63,534 bases of DNA, filler included, from 4 parts of 4 records of this genome joined end to end with filler, not necessarily neighbours in it, one strand, 5' to 3'; positions 2,357-19,194 are shown, counted from the first letter of the whole stretch. Numbers and translations are program-made. Notes: generated from the sequence alone by a model not told the origin.

Positions 2357-3364
2357 TTACAAAAACCCACGGAAAACGGTTGTTCGCAACAAAAACTCAA
2401 ATGCAATTAAAATCAATGCGAAAATTGCCCATGGGCGAAACATTTCGTTATAATTTGTGTATTTAAATTCTTCGATATCCGTTTTCTCTAACTTGTTTAT
2501 TTCTTCGTAAATTTCTTCTAGTTTCGTATTGCTCGTTGCTCGAAAATATTGACCACCCGTTTTTGCAGCGATTTCCTTTAGCAAAGTCTCGTCAATTTCC
2601 ACTTGTACATTTCCGTATTGAAAACCACCGTCTGGGCGAATACCAATGGGCGACATTGCCATACCATTGCTTCCCAAACCAATGGTATATACTTTTATGC
2701 CAAATTCCACTGCAAGCTCACTTGCTATTCTTGGGTCTATAAAGCCTGAGTTGTTAACCCCGTCGGTCAATAAAATGATAACTTTACTTTTGGCACGGCT
2801 TTCCTTCAAACGGTTTACAGCCGTTGCCAAACCTGAACCAATTGCTGTTCCGCCTTCAATGGTTGTATTGTAAACCATACTTTTTAGAGATGAAAGGACT
2901 ATGGTTTTATCACTTGTTAAAGGGGTTCGGGTATAACTTTCTCCTGCATATTCCACCAAACCAATTCGGTCATTTGGGCGACTGCTTATAAAACGTGCGG
3001 CAACTGTTTTTAGGGCTTCCAAACGATTTGGTTTTAAATCGCGCGCAAGCATACTTGCAGAAAGATCCATTGCCATAACAATGTCTATTCCACGCGTAGT
3101 TTTTGTTTTTGTGGTTTCATCTACTGTACGCGGCCTTGCCATTGCCACGATTAATGCTGAAAGTGCCAAAAGGCGAAGTACAAACAAAAATGGTTTTAAG
3201 CGCGCTAGCCAGTTTTTTCCAGTTTTAAAACCGCTAATACTAGAAATTTTTAGTGATGCTGTTTGTTGTTTTCGTTTCCATAAATACCATAGCACAAGTG
3301 GTGGAAGTATTAGAAACAACCAGAAAAACTGCGGATTTACAAATTCGAAATTACTGCCCATCAT
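2357..3364 (-). CDS. batA: BatA, VWA-domain protein
   Basis: BatA N-terminal TM, DLSASM MIDAS, GTAIG, LLTDGVNNSG; start probably ATG 3364 or 3361. Confidence 0.9.
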   Translation of the reverse strand: MMGSNFEFVNPQFFWLFLILPPLVLWYLWKRKQQTASLKISSISGFKTGKNWLARLKPFLFVLRLLALSALIVAMARPRTVDETTKTKTTRGIDIVMAMDLSASMLARDLKPNRLEALKTVAARFISSRPNDRIGLVEYAGESYTRTPLTSDKTIVLSSLKSMVYNTTIEGGTAIGSGLATAVNRLKESRAKSKVIILLTDGVNNSGFIDPRIASELAVEFGIKVYTIGLGSNGMAMSPIGIRPDGGFQYGNVQVEIDETLLKEIAAKTGGQYFRATSNTKLEEIYEEINKLEKTDIEEFKYTNYNEMFRPWAIFALILIAFEFLLRTTVFRGFL

Positions 3365-5018
3365 GCTCTGAAATTTCAAGTTCTATGGAATTGATAATAC
3401 GTTCTTTTATTTTTTCGGCGTATTTGCCATCGTCTTGATATACAATCAAAACTTCTTGCAAACCATTTTGCTGTGCAAAGAGTAAGAGTTCATAAGTGCT
3501 TTTCTCTTTTAGAATTTTGTTGTCTGAAACCTGAACATTAAACTCGCCATAAGCTTTTAAACCTTTGATGCCTTTTTCGGTTTCAAAATCATCGCGTTTT
3601 ACGATTAAATTTTTAGCTCCACTTTGCTCAAGATCGTCCAAAACAGCATCTAAAGCAGTGTCTAATGCAATGTCTTGTTTTTGTGAAAACTGTATTGTTG
3701 AAACCATAATATAAAGCGGTGTATTTTTTTCACCAAAAGTGAATACATCTCTAGCGCTTATAATGCTATTATCGGCATTTGTTTTAGGCATTTCGCCTCT
3801 AATAAGTACTTCGGGGGTTTCTAAAATTACGGCAGGGTTTCCGTATTCGCTATTTATCCAGCGTCCTTCGGAAAGCTCTCGGAGCTCATTGCCAAGAATT
3901 TTATCTTTTAAATTATCAAAACCAGAAATACTACCATAGATTATTGCCGACAAGATAATTGCAGCAAATACACCCGAAATTCCCAAAATCCATTTTTTGC
4001 GTTGGCGCTTTTTCTTAAGCTTTTCTAGGTGTTCTTGGTTTTTTAAAAGTTCCTCCTCGGTAGGTTCCGGAACGGCTTCATGGGTTTCGTTGATAATTTC
4101 TTCAATAGTTTTTCTATCAACTTCCGCTTGCCCCGATTGTTGGCTCATTTTTGCAAATTTTACCAAATCGGCACGTTTAAAAATTTGATCTAACTTCCGA
4201 ATCGTGTCCAAATCAAAATCAAAACTTCCAGCATCTTTGTGCATCATTAAACGACTAATAAGTTCGTCGCTGGTGCTTTCTAGCGCAGCTTCATCTACTT
4301 CACGGTCTAAATAACGCTTTACAATTTCAGTAAGATTACTATAATATTCTTTGCTTTTATTCTCCAGCAATAATTGTGAATTATCCAATTGTTTTAACGC
4401 TACAATAGCTTCTTCATAAGGAGGTAATTGTTTTTCGGCAGCGTCTTTTCGTTTTTTTCTTCGGAATAAATAAAAGGCGATTGCAATAATCAATAAAACA
4501 GGAAGTAACCAGTATAAAAGCGATAACCAATCAAACGGCGGGCTTTTTACTTCCACCGCAGGTTTTATATCGAACATTTTCTGTTTTGTAGTATCTACAA
4601 CCACATCTGCAACTTCCACTTTTATGGAATCGGTTAAAAAAGGTTTGTTGTTGATGAAAATACGTTGCGGCGGAATGGTAAAATGACCACTATCAAACTG
4701 CGTTAACCCGTATTTTTTAATGAGGCGGTATTTTGAAGCTTCAAATGTAGTGTCCATTTTATAGGACGTTATCATTTCTAAAGGCATAAAAGTTTGCTCT
4801 TCAGGAAAAACAACTACATCGGTTGAGTCTGCTTGAACGTTTATGGTGTATAGTATTTCTTCGCCAATTCTAATTTTTGTAGAATCGATTGAAGAGGTTA
4901 CTTGGGCGTTAGCAAAAAAAGAAAAGAAGAATACGATTGCCGAAAAAAGTAAATATGAGTTGCCTTGAAAAATAAATTTTCGGTTTTTCTGATTACTATT
5001 TTGTCTAAAATCTAACAT
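3351..5018 (-). CDS. Bat-operon membrane protein (BatD-like/DUF4381-like)
   Basis: Signal peptide, Ig-like region, TM followed by a basic patch, ADLVKFAK motif; lies between DUF58 and batA. Confidence 0.75.
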   Translation of the reverse strand: MLDFRQNSNQKNRKFIFQGNSYLLFSAIVFFFSFFANAQVTSSIDSTKIRIGEEILYTINVQADSTDVVVFPEEQTFMPLEMITSYKMDTTFEASKYRLIKKYGLTQFDSGHFTIPPQRIFINNKPFLTDSIKVEVADVVVDTTKQKMFDIKPAVEVKSPPFDWLSLLYWLLPVLLIIAIAFYLFRRKKRKDAAEKQLPPYEEAIVALKQLDNSQLLLENKSKEYYSNLTEIVKRYLDREVDEAALESTSDELISRLMMHKDAGSFDFDLDTIRKLDQIFKRADLVKFAKMSQQSGQAEVDRKTIEEIINETHEAVPEPTEEELLKNQEHLEKLKKKRQRKKWILGISGVFAAIILSAIIYGSISGFDNLKDKILGNELRELSEGRWINSEYGNPAVILETPEVLIRGEMPKTNADNSIISARDVFTFGEKNTPLYIMVSTIQFSQKQDIALDTALDAVLDDLEQSGAKNLIVKRDDFETEKGIKGLKAYGEFNVQVSDNKILKEKSTYELLLFAQQNGLQEVLIVYQDDGKYAEKIKERIINSIELEISEHDGQ

Positions 5019-5035
5019 CTCAAGTCTAAAATCTA
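5004..5035. repeat. Degenerate heptamer tandem array TCTAAAA-TCTAACA-TCTCAAG-TCTAAAA-TCTA
   Basis: Read directly; 7-nt periodicity. Confidence 0.65.
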
Positions 5036-5896
5036 TCGTCTTTTAAAATAACCTAATAATTTTTTTACATAACTTTCATCAACCCTACAACTCAAGGCAC
5101 CTGCGCCACTTTTGGTAAAGGTTTCAGTGAAATAATCCACACGTTCACGATGGTAACTATAATAGTGATTACGCACACTTTTGGAGCCTGTGTTTACTAA
5201 AAGAAGCTCGCCAGTTTCTTGATCTTGCATTTGCACCATTCCTAAATTTGGAATATTTTCTTCGGCTTTGTCATAAACTCTAATTCCGGTGAGGTCGTGC
5301 TTTCTAGCGGCAATTTTCAATGTATCTTTATAATCGGCTGCAATAAAATCTGAAAGCACAAAAACAATGGCTTTCTTTTTCATTACGTTGCTTAAAAATT
5401 TTAATGCGTTGGCAAGATCTGTTTTATTGCTTTTTGGTTGAAATTCAATCAACTCACGAATAATTCGCAGTACATGCGATTTTCCTTTTTTCGGTGGAAT
5501 ATAAAGTTCTATTTCATCTGAAAAAAGAATCAATCCCGTTTTGTCGTTATTTTGCATTGCTGAAAAAGCCAAGGTTGCGGCTATTTCAGTAATAATTTCA
5601 TTTTTGAACTGTTCTTGTGTTCCAAAAAATTCAGAACCACTTATATCTGCCATCAACATTAAAGTGAGTTCGCGCTCTTCTTCAAAAACTTTTACAAAAG
5701 GCTCGTTGTATCGCGCGGTAACATTCCAATCTATATTCCGAACGTCATCGCCAAATTGGTACTGACGCACTTCACTAAAGGTCATCCCGCGACCTTTAAA
5801 CGTACTATGATATTCGCCACCAAACACGTGATCGCTCAATCGGCGTGTTTTGATCTCGATTTTCCGTACTTTTTTAAGAAGTTCTTTTGTATCCAT
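5033..5896 (-). CDS. DUF58 domain protein (MoxR-associated)
   Basis: FSEVRQYQFGDDVRNIDWNVTAR motif. Confidence 0.92.
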   Translation of the reverse strand: MDTKELLKKVRKIEIKTRRLSDHVFGGEYHSTFKGRGMTFSEVRQYQFGDDVRNIDWNVTARYNEPFVKVFEEERELTLMLMADISGSEFFGTQEQFKNEIITEIAATLAFSAMQNNDKTGLILFSDEIELYIPPKKGKSHVLRIIRELIEFQPKSNKTDLANALKFLSNVMKKKAIVFVLSDFIAADYKDTLKIAARKHDLTGIRVYDKAEENIPNLGMVQMQDQETGELLLVNTGSKSVRNHYYSYHRERVDYFTETFTKSGAGALSCRVDESYVKKLLGYFKRR

Positions 5897-5904
5897 TTTG
5901 ATTA

Positions 5905-5982
5905 ATTACGATATACGATTTTAGATTTATGAATTTTTAATTTGATAGGAATTCGTAAATCGGCATTCTAAAATCGTAAATC
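5905..5982. repeat. Inverted pair of degenerate heptamer arrays (TTTACGA/TTTTAGA-type units)
   Basis: Left arm ATTACGA TATACGA TTTTAGA TTTATGA; reverse complement of right arm reads TTTACGA TTTTAGA ATGCCGA TTTACGA. Confidence 0.65.
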
Positions 5983-6987
5983 CTATGGGACTTCAATTAC
6001 GTTTACAATCTTATTGATAATATCTTCGGAAGTAATATTTTCGGCTTCAGCTTCATAAGTAATACCGATTCTGTGGCGAAGTACATCGTGTACTACTGCG
6101 CGAACATCTTCAGGAACTACGTAGCCACGACGACGAATAAACGCATAACACTTTGCAGCAATTGCAAGGTTAATACTACCACGCGGGGAAGCACCAAAGT
6201 TTACAAGGGGTTTAATTTCTGAAAGACCAAAATTCTCTGGGGTTCTTGTTGCGAAAATTATATCTAGAATGTATTTTTCAATTTTTTCATCCATATAAAC
6301 TTCACGAACTGCAGCTTGAGCTCTTGTAATTTGCTCTATAGTTGCCACAGGATTCACTTGTTCATAGCTTCCTTTTAAATTTTGGCGCACAATAAGTTGC
6401 TCCTCAGCAATCTGTGGATATTTAATTACTGTTTTTAGCATAAAACGGTCAACCTGAGCTTCCGGTAAAGGATAGGTTCCTTCCTGTTCAATTGGGTTTT
6501 GTGTTGCCATTACTAAAAACGGCCTGTCAAGTTTAAAAGTAGTTTCCCCAATGGTAACTTGCTTTTCTTGCATCGCTTCCAAAAGTGCAGATTGTACTTT
6601 GGCTGGCGCACGGTTAATCTCATCTGCAAGCACAAAGTTGGCAAAAATAGGACCTTTCTTGATGCTAAAATCGTTCACTTTCATGTTATAGATCATCGTT
6701 CCCACAACATCTGCAGGAAGTAAATCTGGCGTAAACTGTATTCGGCTAAAAGTTCCGTGAACTGCTTTAGAAAGTGTGTTGATGGCAAGCGTTTTTGCAA
6801 GCCCAGGAACACCTTCCAACAGAATGTGGCCTTGGCCTAAAAGCCCAATCATAAGCCGTTCCACCATGTGTTTTTGGCCTACAATTACTTTATTCATTTC
6901 CATTGAAAGAACATCCACAAAGGCACTTTCTCTTTCAATTTTCTCATTTAATGCCCCAATGTCAAAGGTCGAATTTGTGTTTTCCAT
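5983..6987 (-). CDS. moxR: MoxR family AAA+ ATPase
   Basis: GVPGLAKT Walker A, RIQFTPDLLPAD, LADEINRAPAKVQSALLE, ATQNPIEQEGTYPLPEAQVDRF; likely start ATG 6987. Confidence 0.95.
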   Translation of the reverse strand: MENTNSTFDIGALNEKIERESAFVDVLSMEMNKVIVGQKHMVERLMIGLLGQGHILLEGVPGLAKTLAINTLSKAVHGTFSRIQFTPDLLPADVVGTMIYNMKVNDFSIKKGPIFANFVLADEINRAPAKVQSALLEAMQEKQVTIGETTFKLDRPFLVMATQNPIEQEGTYPLPEAQVDRFMLKTVIKYPQIAEEQLIVRQNLKGSYEQVNPVATIEQITRAQAAVREVYMDEKIEKYILDIIFATRTPENFGLSEIKPLVNFGASPRGSINLAIAAKCYAFIRRRGYVVPEDVRAVVHDVLRHRIGITYEAEAENITSEDIINKIVNVIEVP

Positions 6988-7201
6988 ACTATGATTTAGA
7001 TTCAATGTATATTTCTTTTTAAAAAGACGGTGCAAATTGAAAATTTATTGATAAAAACCCTGTTAACAATTGGTTAAATTAAAAAAGAGAAAAACTTAAA
7101 ATTATGGGGTACATTTTAAATTAATTTTATCTAACAACTTAGATCGCGATTTTTTGCTTTTAGAACCCTTTAGAAATAGTATTTTTAAAAAAAGTTTGAA
7201 A

Positions 7202-7957
7202 ATGAAAAATAAAACAGCAGTAATTACTGGAGCTACTTCAGGAATAGGTATGGCCACAGCAAGGCTTTTTGCGAAAAATGGATTAAAATTAGTGCTCTGC
7301 GGAAGAAGAGAAGATCGATTGAAAAAAATTTCTGAAGAACTTTCCAAAGTTACAAAAGTACACACACTAAATTTTGATGTGCGGAATAAAGAAGAAGTTT
7401 TTTCAAAATTACAGCAGCTGCCAGCTGAATTTTCAGAAGTCGATATTCTATTAAACAACGCTGGTAATGCCCATGGAATGGACACAATTGATGAAGGCGC
7501 TATAGAAGATTGGGATGCTATGCTAGACATTAATGTAAAAGGATTACTTTATGTGAGTAAAGCAATTCTTCCAAAAATGATTGAACGCAAAAGTGGGCAT
7601 ATTATAAATATTGGAAGCACAGCTGGCAAAGAAGTGTACCCAAAAGGGAATGTGTATTGCGCCAGTAAACATGCTGTAGACGCCATAAACCAAGGCATGC
7701 GAATAGACCTTAACGGAAAAGGAATAAAAGTAGGCGCTATAAATCCAGGATTGGTTGAAACGGAATTTAGTGAAGTTCGTTTTAAAGGAGATTCAGCAAA
7801 AGCCGAAAAAGTGTATCAAGGTTTTACACCATTGAAACCTGAAGATATTGCAGATATCATTTGGTTTGCTGTAACGCGTCCGCCTCATGTAAATATTGCT
7901 GATTTAACAGTTATGTGTTTGGACCAAGCTTCTTCAACGATTGTAAATAAGAAATAA
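7202..7957 (+). CDS. SDR family oxidoreductase (YdfG-like)
   Basis: TGATSGIG, NNAG, YCASK catalytic motif; likely start ATG 7202. Confidence 0.92.
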   Translation: MKNKTAVITGATSGIGMATARLFAKNGLKLVLCGRREDRLKKISEELSKVTKVHTLNFDVRNKEEVFSKLQQLPAEFSEVDILLNNAGNAHGMDTIDEGAIEDWDAMLDINVKGLLYVSKAILPKMIERKSGHIINIGSTAGKEVYPKGNVYCASKHAVDAINQGMRIDLNGKGIKVGAINPGLVETEFSEVRFKGDSAKAEKVYQGFTPLKPEDIADIIWFAVTRPPHVNIADLTVMCLDQASSTIVNKK

Positions 7958-11766: not shown

Positions 11767-12975
11767 TTGAACTTCCCTTTATACATAGCAAAGCGGTACT
11801 TGCGTTCCAAGAGTAGCCAAAATGCGGTAAACATTATCAATTTTATTACTTTTCTGGTCATCGTTATTGGATCGGCAGCACTTTTTATCGTGCTTTCCGG
11901 TTTTGCCGGACTAAAAACCTTTAGCCTTTCCTATACCAATATGGTGGACCCCGATCTTAAGGCCTTGCCACTAACGGGGAAATTCTTTAGCGTATCGGAA
12001 TCCCAGGACCAAGCACTTCAACAACTGCAGGACGTAGCAGCCTATTCCAAGGAAATTGAGGAAAAAGTCTATCTGACCCATGACCAAAAAGCGCATATTG
12101 CCTATATAAAAGGAATAGATTCTACCTTTTTGCAAACTACCCCCATAGATAGTAGCCTTTATTTTTATGGCGACTGGGCCATAAACGGACTACAAGGGGT
12201 TGCTGGACAGGGAATTGTAAGTCTATTGGGATTGAGCATCAACAATTTTAGGAGTCCGTTGGTGATTCGTGTCCCCAAACCGGGCAAGGGCCTATTGGGC
12301 CAACGCTTGTTAAAGGACAGCTATAATGAGACCAACTTGGTCATTAGTGGAATCTACCAAATTGAAGAGGAGTTGGATAGAAAATATATTTTTGCCGATC
12401 TACCCATGGTACAAGCCTTACTGGAAAAGGACAGTACCCAGTTTTCGGGAATAAATTTTAAATTCAAGGAAGGCGCCAATATTGCTGATCTGCGGCAAAA
12501 AATTGAAGCTATTTTTCCAACTCAGGTCGTTTTAAAGGACCGCAGGGAATTGAACAGTACCCTGTATAGAATGCTAAACACGGAGAACCTGGCAACATAT
12601 CTTATTTTTACCCTAGTACTTATCATTGCCCTTTTTAATGTGGTAGGTGCCATTATCATGATGATTCTGGACAAACAGCAGAATTCCAAGACCTTGTACA
12701 ACTTGGGCACGACCATTAAGGCGCTTCGTAAAATATACTTTGTTCAGGGTATATTGGTAACAGGAATGGGCGGTTTGATCGGTGTGTTTTTGGGTTCCTT
12801 GTTGATATGGTCCCAATTGGCCTTTGGTTGGTTAAAAATAACTCCTAGCCTGTCCTATCCAGTGGAGTACAACTTGATCAATGTTCTAATCGTATTGGCC
12901 ACCATTATTGTACTGGGCATTATTGCCTCCTTGATTGCCAGCAGTAGGATCAATAAAAAATTAATAGCACATTAA
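11767..12975 (+). CDS. ABC transporter permease, LolC/E (FtsX-like) family
   Basis: IAKRYL N-terminus, one TM, large periplasmic domain, three C-terminal TMs. Confidence 0.85.
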   Translation: MNFPLYIAKRYLRSKSSQNAVNIINFITFLVIVIGSAALFIVLSGFAGLKTFSLSYTNMVDPDLKALPLTGKFFSVSESQDQALQQLQDVAAYSKEIEEKVYLTHDQKAHIAYIKGIDSTFLQTTPIDSSLYFYGDWAINGLQGVAGQGIVSLLGLSINNFRSPLVIRVPKPGKGLLGQRLLKDSYNETNLVISGIYQIEEELDRKYIFADLPMVQALLEKDSTQFSGINFKFKEGANIADLRQKIEAIFPTQVVLKDRRELNSTLYRMLNTENLATYLIFTLVLIIALFNVVGAIIMMILDKQQNSKTLYNLGTTIKALRKIYFVQGILVTGMGGLIGVFLGSLLIWSQLAFGWLKITPSLSYPVEYNLINVLIVLATIIVLGIIASLIASSRINKKLIAH

Positions 12976-13967
12976 CCTACGAATTCGAAATCCCCGAATT
13001 TTTCCATTACCTCATCAAAAGCCTCAAAAACATCTACAGAATGGTCACTGGTGACCATCTTCATTCGGTACTCCTTAAAATTGGGTATACCCTTAAAATA
13101 ATTGGTATAGTGCCTACGGGTCTCAAAAACCCCCAGCTGTTCCCCTTTCCAGTCTATGGCCATTTGTAAATGACGGCGTGCAGCATTAACGCGCTCCTCC
13201 ATAGTTGGTGGTGCGGCATGGGTGCCTGTTTTAAAAAAGTGCTTCACTTCCTTAAAGAACCAAGGATACCCTATACTGGCACGGCCTATCATGGCACCGT
13301 CCAAGCCATATTCGTCCCTCATTTTCATAGCCATTTCAGGGCTGTCCACGTCACCATTCCCAAAAACCGGAATATGCATCCGTTGGTTGTTCTTTACCTC
13401 CGCAATAGGTCTCCAATCGGCCTCTCCCTTGTACATCTGTACCCGGGTTCTGCCATGAATGGAAATGGCCTTGCAACCTACATCTTGTAGACGCTCCGCC
13501 ACCTCAACTATTTTGATGGAATCAGAATCCCAACCCAAACGCGTTTTTACCGTAATGGGTAGTTTGGTATGCTCTACCATAGCCTTGGTCAAAGAAACCA
13601 TTAGGTCTATATCCTTAAGGATTCCGGCACCTGCACCTTTACTTACTACTTTTTTGACCGGACAGCCAAAGTTGATATCGATAATATCCGGCCCCGACTT
13701 TTCCACTATCTCCACAGATTGAAGCATGGAGTCCAAATTGGCCCCAAAAATCTGTATCCCCACAGGACGTTCCTTTTCGTAAATATCCAACTTCATGACG
13801 CTTTTGGCAGCATCGCGAATTAGTCCTTCCGAGGAAATAAATTCGGTATATACCACATCAGCTCCTTGCTCCTTGCACAAGGCGCGGAAAGGTGGGTCAC
13901 TAACATCTTCCATTGGTGCAAGCAGCAATGGGAAATCCGGTAATTGAATGTCTCCTATTTTAGGCAC
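12972..13967 (-). CDS. dusB: tRNA-dihydrouridine synthase B
   Basis: LAPMEDV, IDINFGCPVKKV, IHGRT, GNGDV, MIGR. Confidence 0.95.
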   Translation of the reverse strand: MPKIGDIQLPDFPLLLAPMEDVSDPPFRALCKEQGADVVYTEFISSEGLIRDAAKSVMKLDIYEKERPVGIQIFGANLDSMLQSVEIVEKSGPDIIDINFGCPVKKVVSKGAGAGILKDIDLMVSLTKAMVEHTKLPITVKTRLGWDSDSIKIVEVAERLQDVGCKAISIHGRTRVQMYKGEADWRPIAEVKNNQRMHIPVFGNGDVDSPEMAMKMRDEYGLDGAMIGRASIGYPWFFKEVKHFFKTGTHAAPPTMEERVNAARRHLQMAIDWKGEQLGVFETRRHYTNYFKGIPNFKEYRMKMVTSDHSVDVFEAFDEVMEKFGDFEFVG

Positions 13968-14144: not shown

Positions 14145-14918
14145 ATGTTATCTCTTATCTTTCTGCCATACGAACCAATTCTGTTTGGAATAAAAGTCAA
14201 TGCACATATAGTGCTGGAATATTTGGCCTTTTTTGTAGGGTTTCAATATTATCTCTATTTAAGAAAACGAACCACGGACACCATCTCTACCAATAACCGT
14301 TTGTCCATAATTATTGGAGCAGTTTTTGGTGCCCTTTTTTTTTCCCGATTAATTGCCTTTTTAGAAAATCCGCCCCTACACTACTCCCAGGGCATAATAT
14401 CATTCCTTAATAACAAAACCATTATGGGCGGACTCTTTGGCGGATTATTGGGCGTGGAGTTGGTAAAAAAAGTAATTGGGGAAAAGCAGTCTTCCGGAGA
14501 TCTGTTCACCCTACCCATAATTCTGGGGATCGCCATAGGTAGGTTGGGATGCTTTTTGGCAGGAACAAAGGAATTTACCTACGGGAAAAAAACTACTTTT
14601 TATTTTGGTATGGATTTAGGCGATGGACTTTCCAGGCATCCCATTGCGCTTTATGAAATAATTTTTTTAATTGGCCTGTTCTTTCTAATCACACAACTTC
14701 AAAAATCTAAACAGCCCCTGGAAAATGGTAGCTATTTCAAATTTTTTATGATAAGTTACTTTTCATTTAGGTTTATGATGGAATTTTTAAAGCCGAATAC
14801 GTATTTCCTATTTGGTCTGAGCAGCATTCAATATTTATGCTTACTTTGTTTGTTGTATTATTATAAATCCGTCGGAGAAGCGATTAAATATGCCTACAAG
14901 AAACTATACCTACTATGA
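14145..14918 (+). CDS. Prolipoprotein diacylglyceryl transferase (Lgt) paralog
   Basis: Multi-TM; GRLGCFLAG, RHPIALYE and YFSFRFMMEFLK match Lgt signature motifs; the HGG motif reads IMGG. Confidence 0.85.
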   Translation: MLSLIFLPYEPILFGIKVNAHIVLEYLAFFVGFQYYLYLRKRTTDTISTNNRLSIIIGAVFGALFFSRLIAFLENPPLHYSQGIISFLNNKTIMGGLFGGLLGVELVKKVIGEKQSSGDLFTLPIILGIAIGRLGCFLAGTKEFTYGKKTTFYFGMDLGDGLSRHPIALYEIIFLIGLFFLITQLQKSKQPLENGSYFKFFMISYFSFRFMMEFLKPNTYFLFGLSSIQYLCLLCLLYYYKSVGEAIKYAYKKLYLL

Positions 14919-16290
14919 TTTTACCTTAAGTCTTTGTCCCGAATGCCTAAGGCGGGTAGATGCAAAGATCGTCTTCGAAGATGAAAAGGTTTATATGCTC
15001 AAAAATTGCAGGGAGCATGGAAAATCAAAAGTAATTATTGCCGACGATATTGAGTACTACAAAAATATACGCAACTACAACAAGGCTTCCGAATACCCTA
15101 AGACCTTTAACACCAAAACCCATTATGGCTGCCCATATGATTGCGGACTGTGTCCTGACCATGAGCAGCACTCCTGTCTTACGGTAGTTGAAGTTACTGA
15201 CCGATGCAACCTTAGCTGCCCTACCTGCTATGCTTCCTCCTCGCCCCACTATGGAAGACATAGAACCCTGGAAGAAATAAAAAAGATGTTGGATGTTATC
15301 GTAAAAAACGAAGGCGAGCCCGATGTAGTCCAGATCAGTGGCGGTGAGCCTACCATACATCCACAATTTTTTGAAATATTGGATTATGCCAAATCGCTAC
15401 CCATTAGGCACTTAATGGTGAATACCAACGGCATTGAAATTGCCAAGGATTTTGCCTTTGCGGAAAGGTTGGCCACTTACGCCCCCGATTTTGAAATTTA
15501 TCTACAGTTCGACTCTCTGGATGAACAGGTTTTACGTACGCTGCGAGGTGCAGATTTAAAACAAACAAGGTTAAAGGCTTTAGAACATCTTAATGCCTTT
15601 AACCTTTCCACAACTTTGGTGGTTACCTTGCAAAAAGGTCTTAACGACCATGAAATGGGCACCACTATTGATTTTGCCCTAAAACAAAAATGCGTTCGGG
15701 GAGTTACTTTTCAGCCCACCCAAATTGCAGGAAGGTTGGAAAATTTTCAGGTTGATGAAAATAGGATTACCCTAACCGAGGTTAGACGTAAAATTTTGGA
15801 GCAATCCCCAATTTTTGAACCGGACGATCTTATTCCCGTTCCCTGCAATCCTGATGCTCTGGTCATGGGATATGCCCTAAAAATGGGGAAGGAAGTAACA
15901 CCATTAACTAGGTATATAAATCCGGACGATCTGCTTAATAGTGGTAAGAATACCATTATCTACGAGCAGGACGAACAACTACATGAAAAAATGATACAGC
16001 TTTTCAGCTCGGGAAACTCGGTTGAAAAAGCTTCGGAAAATTTAAAATCCATCATGTGTTGCCTTCCAGAGATCGATGCCCCCAATATGGGCTACGACAA
16101 TTTGTTCAGAATCATAATTATGCAATTTATAGATGCCTATAATTTTGACGTAAGGGCAATTAAAAAGTCTTGCGTGCATATCGTGAACAAAGATTACAAA
16201 ATCATACCCTTCGAAACTATGAACCTCTTCTACCGGGATGATAAAATAGAACGTCTGAACAAACTAAAGGCGGAAGTGGAAAACAACTAG
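14890..16290 (+). CDS. Radical SAM protein, Tes/GDGT-MAS (MJ0619)-like architecture
   Basis: C16xxC19…C40xxH43, C81xxxC85xxC88xxH…C96, radical SAM C106xxxC110xxC113, SGGEPT, NTNG, YLQFD, C-terminal FIDAYNFDVRAIKKSCVH…IIPF. Confidence 0.88.
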   Translation: MPTRNYTYYDFTLSLCPECLRRVDAKIVFEDEKVYMLKNCREHGKSKVIIADDIEYYKNIRNYNKASEYPKTFNTKTHYGCPYDCGLCPDHEQHSCLTVVEVTDRCNLSCPTCYASSSPHYGRHRTLEEIKKMLDVIVKNEGEPDVVQISGGEPTIHPQFFEILDYAKSLPIRHLMVNTNGIEIAKDFAFAERLATYAPDFEIYLQFDSLDEQVLRTLRGADLKQTRLKALEHLNAFNLSTTLVVTLQKGLNDHEMGTTIDFALKQKCVRGVTFQPTQIAGRLENFQVDENRITLTEVRRKILEQSPIFEPDDLIPVPCNPDALVMGYALKMGKEVTPLTRYINPDDLLNSGKNTIIYEQDEQLHEKMIQLFSSGNSVEKASENLKSIMCCLPEIDAPNMGYDNLFRIIIMQFIDAYNFDVRAIKKSCVHIVNKDYKIIPFETMNLFYRDDKIERLNKLKAEVENN

Positions 16291-16367
16291 AAACTGTCTT
16301 GTTATTTAAGCCTAAAATATTAAAACCCCATTGAATATTATGGTATATTTAATCTTCGATTTTAGCT

Positions 16368-16586
16368 ATGTATAATTTATCCCTTCCTTTAGAAGTAGGC
16401 AATTTGAATGGCCTTTTCGTGATCTTGTTACTGATCATGTTTGGCCCTGCAATCTTATTGATGGTGATAGGATTTATATTGAGGACCAAACAAAAAAGAA
16501 AGGCCGGCAAGGTTTTATTTATACTGGCAGGAGTGTATATGTTGATAAGTCTAGGTGTTTGTGGAGCACTAATAGGAGGTTTTTAG
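16368..16586 (+). CDS. Small two-TM membrane protein with single C-terminal Cys (candidate substrate/precursor)
   Basis: 72 aa: TM1, basic loop RTKQKRKAGK, hydrophobic TM2 ending ISLGVCGALIGGF. Confidence 0.75.
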   Translation: MYNLSLPLEVGNLNGLFVILLLIMFGPAILLMVIGFILRTKQKRKAGKVLFILAGVYMLISLGVCGALIGGF

Positions 16587-19003
16587 AGCCTGTCCCTTTC
16601 ATCCGTATCTTTGGATTTGTAGTTGTCCCTTATCTTCATATTGCCAAAGTTGTACCTAAACCCAAGTGAAAATACCCTCCCGTCCGGTTTATAAATAGAT
16701 GTATTATCCTGATTACCGTATTTACGGGTGTTTGTTAGTTTAAACTGCTTGAGAATATCGGAAAGGCCCATAGTTATGGTTCCTTTTTTGCCCCAAATAT
16801 TCTTTTTCACGGAGATCCCCCATTCATTGTAGTATTCCTGTCTCGAATTGCCAATTATGATAGGGGAAACATAACTGTAATTAAGGCTGGCCGTTAAAGA
16901 TCGGTCTTCCAGCAGAATAAAATTGTTATTCAATTGAACCAAGAGCGTCCACTGTCCCTGGTCCAAGCTTTGTTGCGATAGAATATCGGTAAAACGCTCC
17001 GCCCCATAGTAATAGGAAGATAGGAAATAAGTGTCCCAGAAATTGGATATCTCCTTCCTATAAATGAAATCCAAGCCATAGGCCAACTCCCTATCAACAT
17101 TATCCGTAATAAATCTTAACAGATTGCTTTCATTGTCCTGAAAGGTCAACAAACGCATAATATTCCGGTGATATCTATAAAAAAGTTCAAAGGTGTAATC
17201 CCTATCATAGGTATATGATAAAATCACTGAATTCTTAAAGGAAGGCTGCAGATTTACATTGCCCTCCACCACGGAATTATTACTTTGAAATACCTGAAAA
17301 GGATTAATCTTATTATAGCTGGGCCTGATGATGCTTCTTTTGTAACTGGCCCCCAATCTATGCTTTACATTGGGGTTAAATTGTAAAAATAGTGTAGGGA
17401 ACAATTCCAAATAATGATTTTTAATCTTGTCCGTGCTTAAACTAAAATCCCCTTTTGTATCCGTATATTCCGCTCTTAGCCCAGATTTGAACGTCCAATT
17501 ATTCCATTTTGCATCGAAACTGGCGTAGCCGGCAAGAATTGCTTCATCGTAAAAAAATGTTCCCTCCTCCGTAGACTCAATGCCTTCCTGATCCCGGTCA
17601 AAACCTTCCTGGGCAATATAACTTTCAGAATCTATTAGTGCATACTTTATTCCCGATTCAAAATTGGCACCCTCCCCAACGGGAGAGACAAAATCTGCCT
17701 GCGCACTGTACAAATCGGTGTGCTGCCTATTGAAGGTATTAAAATTGTTCTCCCCAACTATGGCCCGGTTACCATCGTAAAAATCGGTTTCCAATTCCTG
17801 GTCTTTATCATAATCATAATGGGTGTAATGGACATTCACCGCCAGATTGGAGCCTTGGTCGTTAAAGTTGTGCTTATAATCCAAATAGAACGCAGCGTTG
17901 ATCGATTCAAATTTGCCATTGTTCAAGGTGTAAAAACCTGAAGTACTGCCATCATTGGCGTCCAAAATTTGAGTGTCGGACAAATCCCTTGTCAAATAAG
18001 AGGGTGTTAATGTGGCAATGGAAGAAAAACTGATGGTATTATTGTCGTCAAAAGCATAATCCACAAAGGCACTGGTATTGTGCTTTTTACTTCTATAGAT
18101 GACCTCCAGATCTGAAGTCCAGGTATCCCTAATCTGGCCATCCTCAATAAAATTGGTGATATCCGTATAATTTGTTAATATCTTGTTTTGAGAATAACTA
18201 TAATTAAAAGAGGCTTCCAATTGCTTGCTCTTAAAAAAGTGTCCAGTACCAAACATTTGCCGTGGAAATACTGCCTGACTATATTTATTATATATGGCTC
18301 CGTTATAGCCTGCAATTAAATTCTTTTTCATTTTAATATTGATCAAGGTCCCACCTTCGGCATCATATTTTGCTGGGGGTGTTGTTATCACCTCAATAGA
18401 CTGTACCCCTTTTGCCGAAGTACCACTTAATAGATTAAGAATATCTTCCGGCGGAAGGTTCACTTTCTTATCGTTGATCATTATTTGAACCCCGCTCTCC
18501 CCTTTCACCTTAATCTCATCGTTCATAACAAATACGGTTGGAGTACTCTTGAGAACATCCCATAAGTCCGAATCTGAAAGCGCCGTGTTCTCAATATTAA
18601 AGACCAAGCGATCTACCTTTTGTTCCAATGTTGGTTTTTGGGAGACTACGACCACCTCATTCAATTCCTGGCCTTTATCATCTATAAAGAGAGGCCCTAT
18701 GTCCAAATCGGAATTTACCTCTACCAATTTATAATTGGAATAGCTTCCTATATAACTGGCACGCATTAAATATTGGTTGCCGATTATATTATCAAAAGAA
18801 AAAAAGCCTTTTTCATCGGATGCAGCACCTTTAAAAAAACTGGTATCGGATACTTTATAAAGTAGTATATTTGCAAAAGCTAACTCGGTACCATCTGTTT
18901 GCTTAACATGGCCTGAAACCTTGTATTCCTGCCCCACCAACGGGATGCAAACTAGGAGAAAGAATAGGGGCGAAACCTTTAACATTGTCACAAACAGTGG
19001 CAT
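16583..19003 (-). CDS. Outer-membrane beta-barrel protein (TonB-dependent-receptor-like, carboxypeptidase-regulatory-like N-terminal domain)
   Basis: Signal peptide, LNEVVV, IEVITTPPAKYDAEG plug motif, GNVNLQP, FRYNFG near C-terminus; start uncertain (19003 or 18985). Confidence 0.85.
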   Translation of the reverse strand: MPLFVTMLKVSPLFFLLVCIPLVGQEYKVSGHVKQTDGTELAFANILLYKVSDTSFFKGAASDEKGFFSFDNIIGNQYLMRASYIGSYSNYKLVEVNSDLDIGPLFIDDKGQELNEVVVVSQKPTLEQKVDRLVFNIENTALSDSDLWDVLKSTPTVFVMNDEIKVKGESGVQIMINDKKVNLPPEDILNLLSGTSAKGVQSIEVITTPPAKYDAEGGTLINIKMKKNLIAGYNGAIYNKYSQAVFPRQMFGTGHFFKSKQLEASFNYSYSQNKILTNYTDITNFIEDGQIRDTWTSDLEVIYRSKKHNTSAFVDYAFDDNNTISFSSIATLTPSYLTRDLSDTQILDANDGSTSGFYTLNNGKFESINAAFYLDYKHNFNDQGSNLAVNVHYTHYDYDKDQELETDFYDGNRAIVGENNFNTFNRQHTDLYSAQADFVSPVGEGANFESGIKYALIDSESYIAQEGFDRDQEGIESTEEGTFFYDEAILAGYASFDAKWNNWTFKSGLRAEYTDTKGDFSLSTDKIKNHYLELFPTLFLQFNPNVKHRLGASYKRSIIRPSYNKINPFQVFQSNNSVVEGNVNLQPSFKNSVILSYTYDRDYTFELFYRYHRNIMRLLTFQDNESNLLRFITDNVDRELAYGLDFIYRKEISNFWDTYFLSSYYYGAERFTDILSQQSLDQGQWTLLVQLNNNFILLEDRSLTASLNYSYVSPIIIGNSRQEYYNEWGISVKKNIWGKKGTITMGLSDILKQFKLTNTRKYGNQDNTSIYKPDGRVFSLGFRYNFGNMKIRDNYKSKDTDERDRL

Positions 19004-19194
19004 ATCCGTTATAAAAATTTTTAAAGTTAACTTTTTCTTAACTACTAGCAATATTTTCTTTACTTTTTGTAGTAAAAAACCGCAATTTTAACTTCTGCCC
19101 AATTTAAATACCACCATTAATTTTAATTTTTGTAATATACTTTTGGATGGAATAGGCCTAAGAGATTTTTACATTAATAATCGTGGATAAAGCC

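Follow-up and report, generated by a model that had tools for sequence, protein, structure and literature searches.

A three-gene cassette at positions 14145 to 16586 of a 63,534-nucleotide stretch of DNA (the window, in which four parts of four records of one genome are joined with filler) brings together a paralog of the membrane transferase Lgt (LgtP), an enzyme of the radical S-adenosylmethionine (SAM) type resembling the archaeal tetraether synthase Tes, and a membrane mini-protein with an invariant cysteine. Canonical Lgt moves a diacylglyceryl group from phosphatidylglycerol onto the Cys of a lipobox. In inheritance, loss, and fusion the three genes behave as one unit, and the cassette is plausibly a variant of protein lipidation of the Lgt type to which a Tes-like enzyme is coupled, a combination that is undescribed as far as we searched. 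An earlier note on this DNA had placed three co-oriented genes between the housekeeping gene dusB and an outer membrane barrel gene, with a 29-nucleotide (nt) overlap between the first two and a 77-nt gap before the third, and these coordinates proved exact (Table 1).

Related loci in Bacteroidota were collected with a scan of genome contigs, which gave 501 relatives in 600 matched stretches, and the best 80 loci were kept. The nearest genomes are those of Arenibacter species (Flavobacteriaceae), whose radical SAM proteins are 96 to 97% identical to that of the window. A homolog of the small open reading frame (ORF) was detected by tblastn downstream of the radical SAM gene in all 80 loci, and the Lgt paralog was found upstream by the first tblastn in 79 of them. 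In the two apparent exceptions, a miss in Lewinella (L064) and a displaced gene in Hyunsoonleella (L051), the paralog lies 3.9 and 5.6 kb upstream, respectively, on the same contig; once these were followed, the trio is kept in 80/80 loci. Of 102 Bacteroidota loci, 80 show an overlap between the reading frames of LgtP and the radical SAM enzyme; it measures 29 nt in 33 loci, 11 nt in 38, 20 nt in 5, 8 nt in 3, and 4 nt in 1.

The genes are also lost together. Among 201 evenly drawn genomes of the same family, with the threshold for the Lgt paralog set at E≤1e-25, the radical SAM gene occurs in 32 and the Lgt paralog in 31, and these 31 are the same genomes with adjacent coordinates. Both intact genes are thus present in 31 genomes, one intact gene alone in none, neither in 169, and a radical SAM fragment only in one. 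The fragment (G486:C7:758703-758981) is a 93-residue remnant with an in-frame TGA in a genome without any match to the Lgt paralog; it looks like a decayed cassette, consistent with joint loss. Recurrence of the trio in other genomes, anticipated in the earlier note, is borne out by the 80 loci, by the family sample, and by the fusions described below. Matches in a phylum-wide sample were limited to 31 of 401 genomes. The cassette is accessory and patchy, yet strongly conserved where present: across genera in the Bacteroidota loci, identity ranges from 81 to 97% for the radical SAM protein, 54 to 93% for the Lgt paralog (over its hits), and 36 to 94% for the small protein, next to 85 to 99% for LepA and 82 to 99% for DusB from the same loci. 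The radical SAM proteins of a Saprospiraceae member (L046) and of Lewinella (L064) are 81 to 82% identical to that of the window and are nested inside the Flavobacteriaceae clade. The patchy spread may reflect lateral transfer within Bacteroidota. At the RNA level, two seawater metatranscriptome runs matched the radical SAM gene with contigs of only 155 to 189 nt and the small ORF with no contig, and two other runs labeled RNA are probably DNA.

Beyond Bacteroidota, the association takes the form of gene fusions and of adjacency in metagenome contigs. The radical SAM enzyme has 10,638 relatives at E≤0.001 and 675 at E≤1e-30 among 1.84 billion representatives, and 2 of 10 relatives tested (P0123 and P0257) are natural fusions of LGT, zinc-ribbon, and radical SAM domains. 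A search with P0123 returned, among the 120 matches listed, at least 55 clusters (P0123 and P0283-P0336; 656 to 825 aa) with LGT, Zn-ribbon, and Radical_SAM in one chain. Among these matches, the fusion clusters that carry names belong to Tepidisphaerales/Tepidisphaeraceae and Verrucomicrobiota, and unfused near relatives carry the names Aquisphaera, Acidobacteria, Planctomycetota, and Kapabacteria. A scan with an alignment of 17 fusions (A1) returned 80 metagenome loci. In 72 of these, the immediate upstream neighbor, on the same strand, is a separate Lgt-like ORF; one is fused, and no such ORF was seen in 7, of which 4 are cut at the 5' end. No other partner gene is recurrent in the 80 metagenome loci, where the best other cluster occurs in 10 and spurious ORFs in high-G+C sequence blur the picture. 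Given the strict co-occurrence in the family sample and the rates of Cys-helix ORFs reported below, the arrangement of the trio is far from chance. As a separate observation, the linker between the Lgt and radical SAM parts of the fused forms contains an invariant Cys-Cys-Gly (A1 columns C245-C246), which has no obvious counterpart at the C-terminus of the window LgtP.

It is scarcely credible that the genes are merely syntenic without a shared function and that the small ORF is not a gene. That explanation is contradicted by the strict co-occurrence and co-loss, by the fusions, by the distant metagenome lineages in which the neighbors are others, and by the coding signature of the small ORF. 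In comparison with its five closest relatives, the small ORF differs 69, 16, and 164 times at codon positions 1, 2, and 3, respectively, and is therefore coding.

LgtP belongs to the Lgt family without being an equivalog of Lgt. It matches Pfam LGT at 81.6 bits over residues 16-237 (cut-off 24.9) and scores below both Lgt equivalog cut-offs (39.2 versus 118.9 for TIGR00544; 34.9 versus 334 for NF000778). An AlphaFold2 model built from 63 sequences consists of seven long helices (predicted local distance difference test [pLDDT] 87.4; predicted template modeling score [pTM] 0.85), and its sole Foldseek match in the PDB at E≤0.001 is Escherichia coli Lgt, 5AZB (E 7.2e-6, prob 1.00, TMq 0.57, root mean square deviation 6.3). 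Across the 63 LgtP sequences (alignment A2), R133 (equivalent to Arg143 of Lgt), R209 (Arg239), Y205 (Tyr235), and residues R164, P166, and E171 of the RHPxxLYE motif are invariant, as are G135 and C136 next to R133, and H165, L169, and Y170 of the same motif are nearly so. This stretch likewise reads 'GRxGCF' in the fused-form consensus and in the metagenome ORFs that were aligned. Articles are cited here by PMC number. Mao et al. found Arg143 and Arg239 to be essential in Lgt and described a periplasm-facing cavity with a hydrophobic floor, as well as a basic cytoplasmic face and a cytoplasmic C-terminus of the protein (PMC4728403); the last fits the C-terminal fusion to an Fe-S enzyme.

LgtP is probably a paralog beside a canonical enzyme. 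A close relative (G001) encodes canonical Lgt elsewhere in its genome, with 186.6 bits versus 80.9 for its paralog; no canonical Lgt is present within the window, but by comparison with G001 the genome of the window presumably has one as well. In a tree of 49 Lgt-family rows, all 45 Lgt rows that are linked or fused to a radical SAM enzyme fall together, and three canonical Lgt of relatives, the only three included as contrast, are split from all other rows by a branch with a Shimodaira-Hasegawa-like approximate likelihood ratio test (SH-aLRT) value of 100. The subgroups of the Lgt tree mirror those of the radical SAM tree. A third Lgt-family gene, in Lewinella genome G002 (L084, 1168-2328; 386 aa; LGT 129 bits), is extended at the N-terminus, shares with LgtP the Cys at the position of Asn146 ('GRMGCHLAG'), and adjoins a cytochrome c gene, not a radical SAM gene.

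The radical SAM enzyme carries the Pfam domains Zn_ribbon_HMPTM and Radical_SAM. Its best NCBIfam models are TrsS (NF045646; 332.4 bits, cut-off 490) and Tes (NF045702; 292.9 bits, cut-off 450), and it is an equivalog of neither, such that the description 'tetraether-synthase-like' in the earlier note is accurate for the architecture but does not extend to a Tes equivalog. The only strong PDB match is the Tes structure GDGT-MAS (7TOL; 238.7 bits), to which residues 11-321 and 400-455 align and residues 322-399 do not. None of 20 relatives tested reaches the Tes cut-off, and one of them, P0258, is a true TrsS (592.6 bits) outside the Lgt-linked clade. That clade was defined in a quick maximum likelihood tree of 110 rows, which comprise the window, 46 hand-picked loci, 12 fusions out of the 55, and 51 sequences that are either full-length representatives or relatives with names. 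With SH-aLRT 100, it holds 63 of the 110 rows, among them every Lgt-adjacent row from Bacteroidota (18) and from the metagenomes (22) as well as 11 of the 12 fusions, and most other representatives lie outside it.

Three metal sites of the Tes type are conserved, namely, the rubredoxin-like site (C16, C19, C40, and H43), the N-terminal cluster (C81, C85, C88, and H91), and the radical SAM cluster (C106, C110, and C113), by comparison with the ligand lists of Lloyd et al. (PMC9433317) and of a 2026 review (PMC13459092). The ligands of each site are kept in at least 60 of the 63 in-clade rows and at least 43 of the 47 other rows. In the C-terminal part, C319 and C428 are kept, C268 is clade specific (54/63 rows), and the clade-specific Cys390-Cys391 pair is also invariant in the fusion alignment A1 (C647 and C648). 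Window residue M411 aligns with the labile Met439 of Tes, in a column that is less than 85% conserved in the clade. Tes binds glycerophospholipids, those of E. coli included, with the tails in a pocket (PMC9433317), and its C-terminal [4Fe-4S] cluster, at a site of three Cys plus Met439, is proposed to retain the first lipid radical in the form of a C-S adduct (PMC13459092).

The third gene encodes a small protein with a common plan across the 80 Bacteroidota loci and the window, in which a short acidic N-terminus is followed by helix 1, a Lys/Arg-rich loop, and helix 2. Helix 2 ends in [SG]-[LF]-G-[IVT]-C-[GSF], after which come 4 to 12 mostly hydrophobic or Gly residues. The Cys, whose conservation the earlier note had named as a test, is invariant in these 81/81 sequences, and in alignment A3 (60 sequences) C65 is, with I52 and G63, one of the sole invariant columns. 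Profile searches placed the mini-protein in no Pfam or NCBIfam family, and its nearest Atlas clusters are unnamed and from Bacteroidota. An identity as YesK was rejected, the Pfam score of 17.6 bits being below the cut-off of 25.2. In distant Bacteroidota (radical SAM identity, 57 to 76%), the mini-protein sequence is unrecognizable, and a small membrane ORF ending in G-x-x-C still lies 3' of the radical SAM gene. Two to three tandem copies of the mini-protein ORF occur in L101, L105-L107, L109, L115, and L169. For the ORF in the metagenome loci, an overlap of 4 to 10 nt with the radical SAM stop is frequent, and the motif reads '...L-L-[NV]-A-A-C-[FG]-G'; in two of these loci (L176 and L191), the Cys-helix ORF is instead divergent and upstream. 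Six metagenome loci (L145, L147, L175, L186, L189, and L193) place the Cys helix at the N-terminus, reading 'MRR, hydrophobic stretch, S-[LVA]-C-G-G-G' before a second helix. Since the Cys helix may be N- or C-terminal, the conserved trait is therefore the orientation of the helix together with the Cys.

A fixed rule captures this trait across the locus sets. We required an ORF of 40 to 200 aa, starting between -60 and +700 nt from the radical SAM stop, in which a net-basic patch is succeeded by 14 hydrophobic residues without charge and then by a Cys. Such an ORF follows the radical SAM gene in 80/80 Bacteroidota loci, 22/30 loci of a Bacteroidota sample, and 45/73 metagenome loci, against a background of 63/2301, 10/543, and 48/2791 among other ORFs of 40 to 200 aa in the same three sets. 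With a detector that does not depend on start codons, a Cys helix was found in 61/74 metagenome loci, at 0.69 hits/kb near the genes versus 0.10/kb elsewhere.

The setting of the Cys recalls a lipobox, for which the consensus is [LVI][ASTVI][GAS]C (PMC12462473). In the window, KQKRKAGK is followed by 16 hydrophobic residues and then by L-G-V-C; the helix concerned is the second, C-terminal one, not an N-terminal signal peptide, and 7 residues come after the Cys. In the metagenome set, positions -2 and -1 are in most cases A/S and A, respectively, which is lipobox-like. The positive-inside rule would place the Cys where an in-to-out helix, preceded by a basic segment in the cytoplasm, has its outer end, and this is the geometry of a lipobox Cys. 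The mini-protein is probably a dedicated substrate, because its tandem copies are divergent, its Cys helix is permuted, and its conservation is confined to that helix. Alternatively, it might be an unlipidated structural or regulatory subunit whose Cys pairs with Cys136 of LgtP, as a disulfide or as a ligand of a metal or cluster, with the enzymes acting on phospholipids or ordinary lipoproteins. We regard this as unlikely. It would account for an invariant Cys136 in the LgtP active-site motif alongside one invariant mini-protein Cys; small single-purpose membrane subunits are common, and the second helix, which is always present, could dock on the enzyme. However, tandem paralogs, very weak conservation beyond the Cys helix (the identities given above for the small protein), and a permuted Cys helix are typical traits of substrates and would be unusual in a fixed subunit.

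The link to Lgt reaches beyond the 63-row clade. The next clade out in the radical SAM tree contains L116 and L117, whose enzymes are 40% identical to that of the window, and the divergent fusion P0257 is placed one clade further out. With longer flanks, these loci, from other Bacteroidota, prove to hold a sister cassette, in L199 (G034:C25:36000-47500), at 3245-7451, and in L200 (G181:C49), at about 4019-7588; its genes were assigned with Pfam on L116/L199 and, for L200, by tblastn likeness to L199. Both genomes share a core of genes for the radical SAM enzyme, a membrane methyltransferase of the ICMT (isoprenylcysteine carboxyl methyltransferase) family, DUF4395, and an Lgt-like protein with 'GR[IF]GCFF', and by eye a small Cys-helix protein comes after each Lgt-like gene. 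L199 has in addition a Methyltransf_4 methyltransferase 5' of the radical SAM gene. Judging from the Lgt genes in the L116/L117 clade and the position of P0257, the Lgt link therefore predates the 63-row clade and extends past it. In the sister cassette, the ICMT-family enzyme beside the Lgt-like gene is reminiscent of eukaryotic CaaX prenylation with ICMT and, by this analogy, hints that a lipidated Cys becomes C-terminal there.

Features of the cassette and its immediate neighbors are collected in Table 1. The left flank is the housekeeping gene dusB and the right flank is the outer membrane barrel gene, both on the minus strand. The stop of the small ORF and that of the convergent barrel gene share 4 nt (16583-16586), which therefore leaves no space for a terminator between the two.

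Table 1. Features of the cassette and its flanks in the window (positions counted from the first nucleotide of the window)
Feature	Position	Strand	Evidence
dusB, left flank	12972..13967	-	TIGR00737, 328 bits
LgtP, Lgt-family integral membrane transferase paralog, 257 aa, 7 predicted transmembrane helices	14145..14918	+	Pfam LGT, AlphaFold2 model, 5AZB match
LgtP codons R133-L-G-C136, counterpart of Lgt G142-R143-L-G-N146	14541..14552	+	Alignments to 5AZB and to canonical Lgt of relatives
29-nt overlap of LgtP stop and radical SAM start	14890..14918	+	ORF coordinates; translational coupling
Tes/TrsS-family radical SAM enzyme, 466 aa; in order, rubredoxin-like Zn-ribbon, N-terminal auxiliary cluster motif, CX3CX2C core, clade-specific C-terminal domain	14890..16290	+	Pfam, NCBIfam, 7TOL, tree
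Radical SAM cluster motif C106-X3-C110-X2-C113	15205..15228	+	Three Cys invariant in 110/110 aligned members
Clade-specific Cys390-Cys391 pair, C-terminal domain of radical SAM enzyme	16057..16062	+	62 and 61/63 Lgt-linked rows
77-nt gap between radical SAM gene and small ORF	16291..16367		ORF coordinates
Two-helix membrane mini-protein, 72 aa, probable dedicated substrate	16368..16586	+	Homologs in 80/80 loci, coding pattern
Cys65 codon of mini-protein, lipobox-like S-L-G-V-C-G at end of helix 2	16560..16562	+	Invariant in 81/81
Outer membrane barrel gene OMP_b-brl_3, right flank	16583..19051	-	Pfam

A single membrane machine, in which LgtP lipidates the mini-protein Cys and the radical SAM enzyme works on the lipid tails, is the reading that we favor, quite possible in our judgment although short of an even chance. 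LgtP, with the Lgt fold and a cavity open to the outer leaflet, would bind a glycerophospholipid through its two kept arginines and transfer a diacylglyceryl (or similar) group to the invariant Cys of the mini-protein. The radical SAM enzyme would be docked on, or fused to, the cytoplasmic C-terminus of LgtP and would direct 5'-deoxyadenosyl radical chemistry at the alkyl tail or tails of the bound or transferred lipid. The likeliest reaction would be a Tes-like coupling or another functionalization at the tail end, with the hydrophobic floor of the Lgt cavity possibly presenting the tail ends to the enzyme docked beneath. The earlier note had proposed diacylglyceryl transfer to the Cys and then radical cross-linking or macrocyclization of the acyl tails, with a -2 Da shift. 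We infer the topology, the lipid donor, the lipidation of the Cys, and the reaction and substrate of the radical SAM enzyme. Complex prediction for LgtP and the mini-protein (A2 and A3) gave 0.00 in both runs, in which the alignments were unused and the mini-protein fold was uncertain, and is uninformative on binding.

Several observations weigh against this machine. In LgtP, Asn146 of Lgt is replaced by the invariant Cys136, the column of His103 (HGGL motif) holds M, V, or I, and Glu151 of the Lgt signature G142-RLGNFINGELWG-154 aligns with Thr141 in a region that differs. LgtP also has no periplasmic head domain between transmembrane helix 4 and the RHP motif, and its stretch there is far shorter than in L082 and L083, which, among the three canonical Lgt of relatives, have a long insert. 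With His103, the E151 region, and the head domain lost and Asn146 changed to Cys, catalysis by LgtP may therefore differ from that of Lgt. The residues before the mini-protein Cys in Flavobacteriaceae are G at -2 and I/V/T at -1, the latter not the canonical G, A, or S, and only 4 to 12 residues, mostly hydrophobic, come after the Cys, unlike in a prolipoprotein. The detectors found no Cys-helix ORF in 13/74 metagenome loci and in 8/30 loci of the Bacteroidota sample; among these eight, L100 has one by eye, L116 and L117 have one further downstream, and L108 and L110-L112 are still without a detected one. The active site of the radical SAM enzyme would be cytoplasmic, whereas the Cys is predicted in the outer leaflet, such that access to the tails needs a path. 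Other Tes-like radical SAM members are fused to non-lipid domains (P0239 to the MobA-like NTP_transf_3 plus HD, P0241 to DUF5714), and the family is probably functionally diverse. Finally, the C-terminal cluster site appears rewired, and the Tes site of the C-S intermediate would not be conserved as such: columns 323, 427, and 442 are Cys in 40 to 41 of the 47 other members but A, S/T, and E/D in the clade, and Cys390 and Cys391, nearly universal in the clade (Table 1), occur in only 7 and 8 of the 47 other rows. The chemistry here may therefore differ from that of Tes.

The same rewiring with a CC pair favors another explanation, in which the radical SAM enzyme would modify the peptide of the mini-protein itself in the manner of a RiPP (a peptide made by ribosomes and modified after translation), for example, by a thioether at or near the Cys, with LgtP as a scaffold or as the enzyme of a second-step lipidation. 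Tandem precursor-like genes beside a radical SAM enzyme would be in keeping with this, and the weaker NCBIfam matches of the core domain include peptide maturases. Over its full length, however, the enzyme is best matched by Tes and TrsS rather than by SPASM maturases, the positive-inside rule would separate the Cys, in the outer leaflet, from an Fe-S enzyme in the cytoplasm, and the residues after the Cys are not conserved. We consider peptide modification of this kind improbable.

The product might instead be a free membrane lipid, tail-coupled, macrocyclic, or a membrane-spanning diacid, for which the mini-protein would be only a transient carrier or primer or a lipid holder. Iso-branched fatty acids are abundant in Bacteroidota. 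The closest counterpart of the radical SAM enzyme is one that couples lipid tails and acts on glycerophospholipids, and the phosphate-binding arginines are kept in LgtP. Iso-branched ends resemble phytanyl ends (PMC8941075), the enzyme for iso-diabolic acid in aerobic Acidobacteria is described as unknown (PMC13159169), and a protein named as from an Acidobacteria metagenome-assembled genome, P0376, falls in the Lgt-linked clade. Two to three tandem, divergent mini-protein copies would be unexpected for a mere carrier, however, and a cassette present in only 31/201 family genomes is therefore not a core membrane-building function. Also counting against a free lipid, we know of no report of membrane-spanning lipids from Flavobacteriaceae. 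On balance we hold this alternative to be tentative and rather unlikely. A bolder reading is a protein-primed welding of lipids, in which LgtP would load diacylglyceryl on the Cys and the radical SAM enzyme would join iso-branched tail ends into a macrocyclic or membrane-spanning lipid of the iso-diabolic acid type, kept on the protein or released; we put it forward as a long shot.

Comparison with known systems sets the cassette apart on each side. LgtP shares with E. coli Lgt (5AZB/5AZC; PF01790) the Pfam family, the seven-helix fold, equivalents of Arg143, Arg239, Tyr235, and Glu202 (RHPxxLYE), and the GGL stretch, and the mini-protein of the cassette has its Cys after a basic patch and a hydrophobic helix, as in a lipobox. 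Unlike Lgt, LgtP has shorter arms, occurs beside a canonical Lgt, and is always paired or fused with the radical SAM enzyme, and it would presumably act on a single dedicated mini-protein, whose Cys helix is mostly C-terminal, rather than on the secreted prolipoproteins. With Tes/GDGT-MAS (MJ0619; 7TOL/7TOM; NF045702) the enzyme has in common the domain order, the rubredoxin-like CX2C-X20-CX2H, the N-terminal CX3CX2C plus His, and the radical SAM CX3CX2C, but it is bacterial, is found in aerobes, and is tied to Lgt and the Cys mini-protein, a link that has not been reported for Tes. TrsS, a radical SAM (seleno)protein known from an entry in a selenoprotein table (PMC13188914), is the best-scoring NCBIfam model with a full-length alignment; the window enzyme is under its cut-off, and the true TrsS stands outside the Lgt-linked clade. 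Mss, the membrane-spanning lipid synthase of Thermotoga and Thermoanaerobacter, is a radical SAM enzyme by which the fatty-acyl tails of phospholipids in bacteria are coupled, and is the known bacterial analogue of the chemistry proposed here; as described in the available excerpt, it is only remotely related to Tes, is found in anaerobes only, and has no described Lgt or mini-protein partner (PMC13159169). The MYXO-CTERM/myxosortase system likewise has an invariant Cys by a C-terminal helix, thought to be lipidated by an unidentified 'Lgt-like' enzyme (PMC11980579), but its helix has the opposite topology and its proteins are large and secreted, whereas the window cassette has no sortase, protease, or ICMT.

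Bacterial homologues of Tes have been noted since 2022, and in the available excerpts their function is a matter of guesses at the synthesis of brGDGTs (glycerol dialkyl glycerol tetraethers with branched chains) only (PMC8941075, PMC9433317, and PMC11868695). Zeng 2022, Lloyd 2022, Sahonero-Canavesi 2022, and a 2025 Black Sea survey, likewise in excerpt, describe such homologues with brGDGTs or other membrane-spanning lipids as the guessed products, and none of these excerpts mentions Lgt. No relevant paper came up in literature searches for work that connects Lgt, or diacylglyceryl transfer, to tetraether synthases, radical SAM enzymes, or brGDGTs, although supplementary tables of the Tes-homologue surveys may list the genes. 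As the earlier note had also held, we found no described pathway that couples the Lgt and Tes-like families.

These findings tie one large clade of bacterial Tes homologues obligately to a specialized Lgt paralog and a Cys mini-protein. For this clade, the question shifts from which free lipid is made to which lipid is placed on which protein. The cassette also offers a simple expressible system, of three genes or, in the fused forms, two, with mass spectrometry as the readout. If the proposed machine is real, it would modify a protein with lipid after translation in a way that is new; LgtP would be the first member of the Lgt family to have a substrate of its own, and protein lipidation would for the first time be joined to radical chemistry on lipid tails. 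Should protein-primed lipid welding prove true, it would supply the missing oxygen-tolerant bacterial route to lipids coupled tail to tail, give a function to the unexplained bacterial 'Tes homologues', and bear on the unresolved sources of the brGDGT biomarkers used in palaeoclimate studies.

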